Assembly: GCA_004524535.1 (NCBI GenBank)
Contig: SDNY01000065.1
Coordinates: 1 to 20,198 of the forward strand
DNA from: Promethearchaeota archaeon
Lineage (GTDB): Archaea; Asgardarchaeota; Lokiarchaeia; Sigyniarchaeales; SOKP01
Reading direction: 5' to 3'
DNA: 20,198 nucleotides
Below the pieces are notes generated by a model that worked only from the letters and a program-made list of their open reading frames with translations, was not told the DNA's origin and ran no database searches. Positions 10,741 through 13,458 of the stretch are shown one piece after another. Position numbers and translations under genes: made by a program. Within the stretch, counting starts at the first letter, position 1, and the number at the start of each line of letters is the position of its first letter.

Positions 10741-11367
10741 ATGACGATAAAAGCGTTAATTTTTGATTTAGGAGATGTTCTTGTTGAATTGGATTTTTCA
10801 AATTTTTATAAAAAAGTAGCATCCGTATCGCCACAAGGAGAAAATCTTCTTACTCCCAAGATGTTAGAATTTTTTAGACAATCTGATTTATACCATCAAG
10901 GGAAAATGAACGATAATGAATTTTATAAACTTGCGTGTGATATATTTCAGGTATGCATGTTAGATCAGTCTGAGTTTTATGAAGCTTTTAATAGTATTGT
11001 CTCCCATCCTATAACTGAGGTGGTTGAATTACTTAAAAAATTAAAAGAAATTAAGAAATATAAACTAATAGCTTTATCAAATGTGAATGCTAGCCACTGG
11101 AATTATATATTAACTAAAAATTGGAAATTCTTAGAATATTTCGATGAGCTTATTTTATCATACCAACTTCATATGACTAAACCTGATCCTAAAATCTTCA
11201 AATACGCAGTTAAAAAAGCTAATTGTAAACCCATAGAAATTGTATTCATTGATGATGGATTTAACAACGTGCGTTCAGCTAAAGAATTAGGAATGATAGG
11301 AATTCATTTTACAAATGTGAAAATGTTAATGAAAGAATTTGAAAAATTAAAAATAGTGTTGAATTAA
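10741..11367 (+). CDS. HAD-family phosphatase (YihX-like)
   Basis: Motif I FDLGDVL, motif II LSN, KPDP, and motif IV FIDD...NV. Confidence 0.92.
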   Translation: MTIKALIFDLGDVLVELDFSNFYKKVASVSPQGENLLTPKMLEFFRQSDLYHQGKMNDNEFYKLACDIFQVCMLDQSEFYEAFNSIVSHPITEVVELLKKLKEIKKYKLIALSNVNASHWNYILTKNWKFLEYFDELILSYQLHMTKPDPKIFKYAVKKANCKPIEIVFIDDGFNNVRSAKELGMIGIHFTNVKMLMKEFEKLKIVLN

Positions 11368-11921
11368 ATCTCCAAGGTTTTAAGGCATGATTTTGCTATA
11401 GAGGTAAACGCATTCTCAACATTATCTCCTGTCTTTGCAGATGTTTCTAAATAATCGCACCCTAGCCTTTTTGCTAAATCTATAGCTTCTGCTTTATCTA
11501 CTTGACGTTCCAAATCGCTTTTATTGCCCAACAGAATCATAGGAATGTTTTTTTTAACTGTTTTTTTTATAGATGAGACCCACCCAGGAATCTTCAAAAG
11601 CGATTGGGGACGGGTGAGGTCAAATACTCCTAAAGCGGCATTACTCCCTTTAAAATAGATCGTACGAAGCTTATGGAACTGAGGCTGTCCTCCGATATCC
11701 CAAAGTAAGAGACGCACAAGCTTACCCCCAATATCAACATCTTTAATTAGGAAATTAGAACCGATAGTTTTTTTCAAATCCTCTGAAAAATTATCTTTTA
11801 CGAAACGTAACAGAAGACTGGTCTTACCAACGCCTCCCGGTCCAAATAATTTAGTCCCTTGAGACTAAGAGTCTCGAGATGTGACCTTGAACTTGTATTC
11901 CGATGATGGTTCTTCTGACAT
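11364..11921 (-). CDS. Rab/Ras-like small GTPase interrupted by a 30-nt insertion (exon 1 11921-11881, exon 2 11850-11364; 175 aa when joined)
   Basis: Joined sequence: MSEEPSSEYKFKVTLFGPGGVGKTSLLLRFVKDNFSEDLKKTIG...WDIGGQ...NKSD...TSAK. The track ORF starts at 11777 and misses the P-loop because of the in-frame TAG at 11867-11865. Confidence 0.92.
11851..11880 (-). other. Putative bulge-helix-bulge (archaeal endonuclease-type) mRNA intron, 30 nt
   Basis: Central helix GGUC/GACU, 3-nt bulges ACA and AAA, intron stem UCUCGAGAC/GUCUCAAGG (one C-A mismatch), exon stem AA/UU plus CAAGU/AUUUG. It contains an in-frame UAG, and its removal restores the conserved beta1/P-loop. Confidence 0.85.
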
Positions 11922-12099
11922 TTTTATATTACCACTTAATATAACCTTTTTAAAGTTAATAAAAATTGATCTTGTTTTTCTTCTTTAATTATTATTTGAT
12001 ATTATTCTTTATAGATATTTATATGTTTATAATAATGTTAAACAAAAAATTATTTTTAATCTAATTTGGAAACAAATATAATAATTTTTATTTTTCTAT

Positions 12100-13458
12100 T
12101 TATTCTTTAATTTCCTTCTTTTTTTTAAAAGTTTCCTTAATTTTTTCTTTTGCAGCGGAAACTTCTTTCACTACATATCCCTCAATCTTTTTTGCTTCTT
12201 TTTTCACACTTTCACCTGTCTTTTGTCCTATTCTACCTATTTGTATCATGATCCATTCAGGGGATCCAACACCGTGACCGTATTCATTCCAGATATACAT
12301 TAAGAATCCAAGAAATCCAATATAAGCTAAGCATACAAAAGGGAAGATAACGATATTAAATTGTCCAATGAACAATGTGATAAAAACATACTCAACTAAA
12401 AACAGGCTAAGAGAAATCTTGCCATAGTACTCAATGCAGGATGTAAATTTATTATCATGTTTTTTAATGTCTATGAGATAAAAACAAATAGCAATAATTA
12501 GGAGCGCAGCACCTTGGTTATAAAACATATTCCCAATAGTACCCCTTATTAAAAATTCAGGCATACCCGGAAAATGATAATAATTTTGTTTATTCATAAT
12601 TGTATATAATCTTAAGTGAGGATATTCAGATTCCACCATGGTCTCAGGAGTTTGTAATTGCCAACCTAATATTAATCCAGATATGAGAAATATTAGCCCC
12701 CAAATTAAAAATAATCGAAATAAGCGGAAATAAGCTTCTTCAGTTCCCATCATCATGGCATCGTAAAGATATTCACCAAATATACTTGAAATGAAGCACA
12801 CTGCGAGCCATGGGAAAAGTGTTATTTCGGGAGTTGGTGATGTAACAATAAAATGTGACAGCCATATTAATGGATTAGAATCCTTTTCTAAATAGAGAAA
12901 TTCTCTAAAAAATGGTGAAATAAGAATAATAATAATCCCAATAATAGCACGGGGCCATTTTTTCAGTTTTACAGCGTAATATGTGAAGATCTGAGAAAAA
13001 CCGATAAACATAAGAATGTTCCAACCCCATAGATTTAAAGGAAATGCAATATCAGGACGTACCGCACTCAAACCTATTAGATTAAATAGCATTCCGATTA
13101 CTATTATCGTAAGTCCGCGAGAAAAGATCCTGTTTCGAATAACTTTATCTGGCAATTTCCCTTGTTTTCTCCTAATACTGAATATTACACTAAGAGCTGA
13201 TAAAAAAATGAATAAGGAAGGCCCTAATATATCAAGTGCAGCGTAAACCATACCATGTATATATATCCAATCTGAATCGAACCATACCATCGATGTATGC
13301 GCAATAATTATAAATACAATCGCAAAACCCTTTACGAAATCTATTGAATTAATTCGCTGGGGAGATGCATAATCTCGAATATCTTCAATTGGTATATCCT
13401 CTTTAAGATAGCTTATAAGATCAGACATGGGTTTTTTTTTTTCTTCTTCTGATGACAT
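12100..13458 (-). CDS. Membrane acyltransferase, HGSNAT/DUF1624-like
   Basis: N-terminal RINSIDFVKGFAIVFIIIAH, plus P.LF.FLS, R..RG, W.IL..IG and LFPW motifs, and many TM helices. Confidence 0.8.
   Translation of the reverse strand: MSSEEEKKKPMSDLISYLKEDIPIEDIRDYASPQRINSIDFVKGFAIVFIIIAHTSMVWFDSDWIYIHGMVYAALDILGPSLFIFLSALSVIFSIRRKQGKLPDKVIRNRIFSRGLTIIVIGMLFNLIGLSAVRPDIAFPLNLWGWNILMFIGFSQIFTYYAVKLKKWPRAIIGIIIILISPFFREFLYLEKDSNPLIWLSHFIVTSPTPEITLFPWLAVCFISSIFGEYLYDAMMMGTEEAYFRLFRLFLIWGLIFLISGLILGWQLQTPETMVESEYPHLRLYTIMNKQNYYHFPGMPEFLIRGTIGNMFYNQGAALLIIAICFYLIDIKKHDNKFTSCIEYYGKISLSLFLVEYVFITLFIGQFNIVIFPFVCLAYIGFLGFLMYIWNEYGHGVGSPEWIMIQIGRIGQKTGESVKKEAKKIEGYVVKEVSAAKEKIKETFKKKKEIKE

Follow-up and report, generated by a model that had tools for sequence, protein, structure and literature searches.

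The window analysed here is a stretch of 20,198 nucleotides that makes up a whole contig (SDNY01000065.1; C161 in our numbering) of a genome of 3.66 Mb in 198 contigs with 30% G+C (G000). Its relatives in public collections are mostly titled Promethearchaeota or Promethearchaeia archaeon metagenome-assembled genomes, i.e. Asgard archaea. On the minus strand the window carries a Ras/Rab-family small GTPase gene whose frame is interrupted by an insert of 30 nt. The comparative evidence makes it likely that this insert is a miniature mRNA intron of the bulge-helix-bulge (BHB) type, spliced by the endonuclease EndA and the ligase RtcB. The features in question are the following, all on the minus strand.

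11921-11364: whole Ras/Rab-family small GTPase gene, ATG at 11921-11919 and stop codon at 11366-11364, interrupted by the insert
11881-11921: exon 1, 41 nt, encoding MSEEPSSEYKFKV plus the first two nucleotides of a Thr codon
11851-11880: proposed BHB intron, the 30-nt insert; alternative placement at 11850-11879 (1-nt ambiguity, an A)
11364-11850: exon 2, with the last nucleotide of the Thr codon, LFGPGGVGKT...LEI and the stop codon
11865-11867: in-frame TAG within the insert, as read from the sequence
11883-11886: 5' strand of the central 4-bp helix, GGUC, in exon 1
11853-11856: 3' strand of the central 4-bp helix, GACU, in the intron
11880-11882: 5' bulge, ACA, predicted cut 11881/11880
11850-11852: 3' bulge, AAA, predicted cut 11851/11850
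11857-11879: inner helix h', a hairpin of UCUCGAGAC, the loop UCUUA and GUCUCAAGG, with 8 of 9 positions paired
11843-11849: 3' strand of the outer helix h, UU then AUUUG, with partners at 11888-11887 and 11895-11891 in exon 1

Translation of 11921-11364 gives MSEEPSSEYKFKVTSRDS, the in-frame TAG and then SQGTKLFGPGGVGKT..., a Ras-family frame that is open apart from this one stop codon. Exon 2 matches the Pfam Ras profile with an E-value of 3.8e-47 over positions 4-161 of 162, and retains intact G1 (GPGGVGKT), G3 (DIGGQ), G4 (NKSD) and G5 (ETSAK) motifs; profile and motifs place the protein at the level of the Ras family. When the TAG is read as X, the Ras profile begins at position 4 of 162, at residue 25 of the read-through product. 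With 32 Ras-type matches in the genome, the host gene is part of a large paralog family. An uninterrupted member, YQFKIIICGDPHVGKT, lies in the window itself at 3541-2492 on the minus strand, as the preliminary description of this DNA had pointed out; it has an N-terminal extension of about 170 residues ahead of the GTPase domain.

The preliminary description, made from the sequence without database searches, had quoted the minus strand from 11895 to 11843, folded it into a BHB motif and proposed that a 30-nt insert with an in-frame UAG is spliced out of the mRNA. The quoted sequence reads exactly as given there, all the pairings and bulges listed are present when checked position by position, and the translation confirms the insert and its stop codon. 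All four positions of the central helix GGUC/GACU are paired, by three Watson-Crick pairs and one G-U pair, and the inner stem pairs 11879-71 with 11865-57 around a loop of 5 nt. The two 3-nt bulges lie on opposite strands with the 4-bp helix between them, each bulge 3' of the central helix, as in a BHB motif. When 71 nt are folded without constraints, the minimum-free-energy structure contains the central helix, the ACA bulge, the inner hairpin and the CAAGU/AUUUG stem. The splicing endonuclease cuts after the second nucleotide of each bulge, a rule derived from the geometry of canonical tRNA introns at position 37/38, and this rule was validated on inserts in the gene for ribosomal protein uL11 (see below). 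No other copy of the insert occurs in the genome, no local or genomic template for it was found, and a search for a target-site duplication found none, in agreement with the preliminary description.

The best-match loci of 29 other genomes were compared, and the insert is missing in 29 of 29. Of these the nearest ortholog, with 93% amino acid identity, encodes SEYKFKVTLFGPGGVGKT, exactly the peptide predicted for the spliced product in the preliminary description; removal of 11880-11851 yields the junction of that ortholog. The closest ortholog has GTG vs GTC here, the C that pairs with an intron G being a synonymous change. Among metagenome orthologs the 51 closer loci (L113-L163) were examined and 18 more distant ones left out; the site in strand beta1 is uninterrupted in 43 of the 51, ambiguous in one and without coverage in seven, and none clearly has the insert. 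One of these contigs, L115 (88% identical to exon 2), begins 12 nt ahead of the Leu codon and reads ...TTATTAAA and then TTG. A Lys codon thus precedes LFGPGG in L115, as in the unspliced window gene, and the contig end cuts there; it may carry the same beta1-site intron in another population.

Loosely defined BHB shapes are common, with 560 on one strand of the 20-kb window, and the fold alone is not above chance. The predicted cut sites, in turn, coincide with the ends of an insert that the orthologs define independently, so that it is this coincidence, and not the fold itself, that stands above chance. Its rarity was estimated by Monte Carlo simulation, in 200,000 trials for each scheme, by placing random genomic 30-mers and other substitutes at the insert site. 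Among random genomic 30-mers, 0.12% produced a BHB with exact excision and 0.009% one that equals the real motif in quality. When the hairpin was retained and both its offset and the flanks were random the figure was 0.24%, and with the hairpin at its true offset and the flanks random it was 1.9%.

The insert is genomic. Comparisons across sequencing runs were made with DNA contigs. Over 11500-12200 a depth-52 contig from the probable source run shows no difference from the window, and in a second sample a contig of 312 nt covers 11655-11966 with five differences and no gaps, the insert and its surroundings being unchanged (this contig is present in two runs that look like one data set filed twice, and was counted once). 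All five strain differences in the coding sequence (11637, 11670, 11676, 11688 and 11709) are synonymous and in third position, which is suggestive rather than strong as a sign of constraint. The dN/dS of exon 2 against the ortholog in genome G008 is 0.149, and no second lesion was found across the 185 codons of the gene. The preliminary description had held the rest of the gene to be without decay, and this statement stood; judging from these comparisons the gene is under purifying selection.

The window gene has company in its own genome, where at least four further inserts of 30-34 nt with the same geometry bring the total to at least five interrupted protein genes. In each, excision by the BHB rule restores the ortholog sequence or a conserved motif exactly (a slash marks the junction).

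C188:175-204, ATG at 92: uL11, single copy; 30-nt insert with an in-frame TAA; excision restores GPAV/GPTG
C113:6555-6524: B12-binding mutase subunit; 32-nt insert; excision restores KPGL/DGHDRGAKV
C174:2010-1980: Obg-like GTPase; 31-nt insert in the P-loop
C138:12740-12707: ABC ATPase; 34-nt insert in Walker B; excision restores LDEPT/TGVD

The uL11 insert forms a perfect canonical hBHBh' structure with a 7-bp outer helix and a folding energy of -19.2 kcal/mol. The insert in the mutase gene is missing in 23 of 23 other loci, one of them 98% identical, and its outer helix is built by six synonymous changes in the flanking codons; synonymous exon changes near young introns strengthen the helices. 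All six ABC ATPase orthologs are uninterrupted. In Pfam comparisons the exon-2 proteins start at profile position 12 of 121 (B12-binding), 11 of 113 (MMR_HSR1) and 4 of 162 (Ras), and in the read-through product of uL11 the N-domain profile is stretched by about 10 residues. Three of the sister inserts (31, 32 and 34 nt) shift the frame. Since inserts of these lengths cannot be read through, and since uL11 cannot be a pseudogene, a route for their removal must operate in the organism. The 5' exon measures 37-83 nt in the window intron and in three of the four sister introns. All five introns lie in Gly/Pro-rich, G+C-rich codon runs (P-loop, GPxxGP, KPGLDGH, DEPTTG) of a genome that is otherwise 30% G+C.

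Interruption of uL11 extends well beyond the window's genome. Of 30 loci from relatives nine are interrupted, five of them where the gene of the window's genome is; in other relatives the inserts occupy three different sites of this 80-nt stretch. A survey of 80 species representatives, which overlaps this set, yielded 75 loci long enough to judge, of which 38 are intact and 37 have one to three inserts of 28-38 nt. Two genome contigs (L255 and L257) show three separate uL11 inserts (31-37, 36 and 28 nt) within about 80 coding nucleotides. When DNA alignment to intact orthologs alone sets the insert boundaries, a perfectly paired 4-bp centre with 3-nt bulges falls precisely on them in 28 of the 49 uL11 inserts, and in none of the 49 under the mirror geometry. 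Likewise, excision by the BHB rule restores the conserved uL11 peptide in 17 of 37 loci and the mirror rule in none of 37. A strictly canonical census resolves eight of the 37 loci, rising to 17 once an adjacent outer pair is no longer required, and the remaining loci look like relaxed motifs or alignment slips. A control that cuts after the third bulge nucleotide resolves 18 of 37; it does not discriminate, because the third bulge nucleotides are often identical.

Covariation supports the same geometry. In the Obg-GTPase intron, compared among four species, 97.6% of the cells are paired and the pairs 20-40 and 21-39 have changed on both sides. In the uL11 intron of five species 98.9% are paired, two pairs have changed on both sides, and one exon-exon pair has gone from A-U to U-A via two synonymous changes. 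With so few sequences (four or five) shuffling is a weak control (30-35 of 500), and slid controls are at most 55% paired. A further case lies in the orthologs of the Rab-like window gene, where 10 of the 51 metagenome contigs have a different, frame-shifting 32-nt BHB insert at the G3 site (LLLWD/IGGQ). An alignment of eight of these ten loci (two that looked identical in the segment were dropped), giving seven distinct rows, shows the central helix 100%, the inner helix 98.4% and the outer helix 71% paired. A single pair is found in four Watson-Crick types (C-G, A-U, G-C and U-A), and none of 500 shuffles reaches the covariation score. The 71% pairing of this outer helix eases the main structural worry about the window intron, its weak outer helix; such weak outer helices appear to be tolerated in sister introns, including those of essential or conserved genes. 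One metagenome contig of this ortholog group, L161, has two more inserts at about 130-160 and 270-305, the first an in-frame insert of 30 nt that follows RYI and includes a TAA, the second an insert of 32 nt that follows GGQ, which raises the number of intron positions in the group to at least four.

The enzymes needed to remove BHB introns are encoded in the genome. The EndA family (PF01974) has two matches above the cut-off, at 107.9 and 70.7 bits, in open frames of 203 and 202 amino acids on contigs C100 and C84, and RtcB has one match of 561 bits. Asgard EndA has been reported as an (alpha-beta)2 type with an L1 loop that is linked to a broad substrate range (Kaneta 2018, PMC5829648). ARAGORN finds nine intron-less tRNA genes, and at most 20 tRNA genes when introns are searched for, in a genome rated 99% complete. 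Such a small number of intron-less tRNA genes fits the heavy interruption of tRNA genes reported for some Asgard lineages.

These observations suggest how the window gene may be expressed. In the transcript, GGUC of exon 1 would pair with GACU near the 3' end of the insert to form the 4-bp central helix, flanked by the two 3-nt bulges, with the intron hairpin inside and a weak exon-exon helix outside. A heteromeric splicing endonuclease, assembled from the products of the two EndA-family genes, would cut after the second nucleotide of each bulge (11881/11880 and 11851/11850), and RtcB would join the exons to ...YKFKV-T-LFGPGGVGKT..., a stretch uninterrupted in all orthologs, so that the spliced mRNA would yield the GTPase. 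On unspliced mRNA, translation would end at the TAG after 18 codons. Most of the observed introns are located no more than 40-90 nt into the coding sequence, and splicing may thus be completed before ribosomes arrive.

The window intron appears to be a recent, lineage-specific gain. The species-specific gains would be very young, given their absence from relatives that are 93-98% identical in these proteins. At the level of the lineage, it is probable that in the window's genus and family EndA-dependent mini-introns of 28-38 nt have proliferated in protein genes. This would cover the essential uL11 (with one to three introns in the gene of roughly half the related species examined), GTPases, the ABC ATPase and the mutase subunit, some of the gains being recent and species-specific and the exons having since become co-adapted to them. 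In that case mRNA splicing would probably be routine in these close relatives of eukaryotes.

Several results weigh against splicing of the window gene. Its outer helix is weak, with two A-U pairs (AA/UU), a 2-nt asymmetry and then five pairs (CAAGU/AUUUG), and the fold has unremarkable stability (z = -1.55, matched by 21 of 200 shuffles). A genome-wide scan for BHB motifs that join open reading frames, a check put forward in the preliminary description, showed no bulk excess over controls: 8382 true joins stood against 8450 mirror joins, and controls with a shifted cut equalled the true cut. The latter result reflects the short 5' exons, which weaken the frame test. Simply counting true and mirror geometry across the genome carries no information, since every BHB reads as a mirror BHB on the opposite strand. 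When the scan was ordered by energy only the uL11 intron stood out, as the top match; the window candidate came ninth, among similar controls (16 vs 14 at -6 kcal/mol or below), and structure and reading frame alone would not single it out. The same earlier text had looked to orthologs for intron-less alleles and for covarying stems at the site. Orthologs lacking the insert were found at 29 of 29 loci; the insert itself is confined to one species, with a second strain identical across it, which leaves no covariation test at this position. Furthermore, the five strain differences come from few contigs at a depth of 2-3, the loss of one GTPase gene would be tolerable with 32 Ras-type matches in the genome, and the support for splicing is entirely comparative, with cleavage, ligation and translation of the spliced mRNA deduced from it.

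Some of these points would equally suit the main rival explanation, a recent pseudogene, in which 30 hairpin-forming nucleotides were inserted by a replication or repair accident and the likeness to a BHB is coincidental. The large gene family, the restriction of the insert to one species, the weak outer helix and the ordinary fold energy are all compatible with it, and the reader who made the preliminary description viewed many windows, among which a coincidence of 1 in 1,000 to 1 in 10,000 could surface. This explanation is nevertheless unlikely, as it has to accommodate the purely synonymous strain variation within the insert-bearing lineage, the low dN/dS, the lack of a second lesion and the exact fit of the cut sites, and no local or genomic source for the inserted nucleotides was found. 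Above all, four other genes, including the single-copy uL11, have inserts of the same size and geometry, and a working splicing route must therefore exist in this organism.

Programmed translational bypassing, in which the ribosome skips the 30 nt of an uncut mRNA, has precedents in T4 gene 60 and the yeast mitochondrial 'byp' elements. In T4 gene 60, as in the window gene, an otherwise intact coding sequence holds a short insert that has a stop codon and forms a hairpin, and the frame of the window gene resumes after the insert. In T4 gene 60, however, take-off and landing codons match and the stop directly follows the take-off codon, whereas the window gene has no matching codons 30 nt apart (ACA vs AAA, GUC vs ACU) and its stop lies four codons past the junction. 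Bypassing would also leave unexplained the exon-intron pairing, the compensatory changes by which exon-insert helices covary, and the geometry found in 28 vs 0 of 49 uL11 inserts, and is very improbable. More improbable still is that the UAG is read through or recoded, for instance as pyrrolysine, giving an insertion of 10 residues ahead of the P-loop. The insert is in frame and a multiple of three, as this would require, but a profile search of the genome found no PylS above the cut-off (best TIGR02367 match 26.3 bits vs a cut-off of 178), and TAG is an ordinary stop codon here that ends 232 of 1819 long open frames. Judging from the Ras fold, the insertion would also split strand beta1 three residues ahead of the P-loop glycine, and the sister inserts of 31, 32 and 34 nt would not be accounted for. 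An assembly or sequencing artefact, conceivable in an assembly of 198 contigs, is hardly credible in view of the depth-52 source contig, of the second-sample contig that keeps the insert despite five differences, and of the same kind of inserts across many independent assemblies. Bypassing, read-through and artefact even taken together are quite improbable. Splicing by EndA and RtcB, as proposed in the preliminary description, thus has strong if indirect backing from the sister inserts, the covariation and the presence of the enzymes, and is the reading we favour.

Besides the introns described above, the scans returned other matches. Ranking by hairpin energy gave 815, with the known positives not among the 70 listed and the ABC ATPase case as its sole gain, and the count of five mRNA introns in this genome is a lower bound. 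At C55:4956-4984 (plus strand) lies a BHB-like hairpin whose end coincides with the ATG of a gene for a Cys-rich protein of Fe-S/CCG type. As the ATG forms at its 3' end, it was rejected as a coding intron. It probably represents a hairpin of the 5' leader, perhaps comparable to the 5' untranslated region (UTR) intron of Haloferax discussed below. The candidate at C28:13693 was also discarded, the supposed intron holding a P-loop coding stretch, and C123:45957-45918 and C51:34034-33970 are candidates by structure. The start of the Rab-like gene shows a peculiarity of its own. Orthologs L002-L030 mostly have no in-frame ATG, GTG or TTG upstream of the YKFK motif, and share a conserved GAGGT-like Shine-Dalgarno sequence followed about 8 nt on by ATT or ATC and then TCN ('xIS'), which suggests a conserved AUU/AUC start codon in most of them. 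The window gene and metagenome locus L116 have an ATG (MSEE...) instead, and L116 encodes the same MSEE.SSEYKFK N-terminus without interruption.

BHB splicing of coding mRNAs has so far been held a curiosity in archaea, known from cbf5 and from one Haloferax 5' UTR (PMC7714728). Full-text searches of open-licence papers and preprints turned up no description of BHB introns in Asgard protein-coding genes, and a prior report is possible. If the interpretation is correct, an Asgard archaeon needs BHB splicing to express a gene for a eukaryote-signature GTPase, and mRNA splicing would be routine and obligatory in the nearest prokaryotic relatives of eukaryotes known. Many Asgard genes would then be mis-called as truncated, split or pseudogenes, which would distort inventories of eukaryote-signature proteins. 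The lineage would also be naturally suited to studying how mRNA introns are dealt with in a cell whose transcription and translation are coupled, a question central to ideas of intron invasion and the origin of the nucleus, and its species-specific gains would be very young introns whose origin is open to study.

Among known systems, the unconventional splicing of HAC1/XBP1 also removes a very short, non-spliceosomal coding intron that is cut by a protein endonuclease at stem-loops; an RtcB-type ligase joins the exons, and the choice of protein product depends on splicing. It differs in its nuclease, IRE1 rather than the tRNA endonuclease, in its recognition structure and in being regulated by stress. 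The cbf5 pre-mRNA intron of Crenarchaeota is reportedly also the subject of studies by Watanabe from 2002 and Yoshinari from 2006. Like the window insert, it is a BHB intron in an archaeal protein gene, in hosts with hetero-oligomeric EndA, with lineage-specific gain and loss and with interrupted genes confused with frameshifts in annotation (Yokobori 2009, PMC2738675). According to a later account, cbf5 was the only coding-region example of a BHB intron reported up to 2020 (Schwarz 2020, PMC7714728). In Haloferax volcanii, too, the archaeal splicing endonuclease acts on an mRNA, that of HVO_1309, which is expressed efficiently only once its intron has been taken out, an excision demonstrated both in vivo and in vitro; this intron lies in an untranslated leader, not in coding sequence, and in a euryarchaeal host (PMC7714728). 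Asgard tRNA introns share the predicted enzyme and the motif with the window insert (bioRxiv 10.64898/2026.10.13.758758; PMC5829648), as well as repeated, recent, lineage-specific gains at BHB-capable sites, and differ in residing in tRNA genes, the word 'mRNA' being absent from the main text of the preprint (bioRxiv 10.64898/2026.10.13.758758). In cbf5 a single crenarchaeal gene is concerned and splicing has been experimentally shown, whereas in the present case splicing is predicted from comparison of sequences, in an Asgard host, for a eukaryote-signature small GTPase, one among five or more interrupted genes of a genome whose relatives have as many as three inserts in a single gene.

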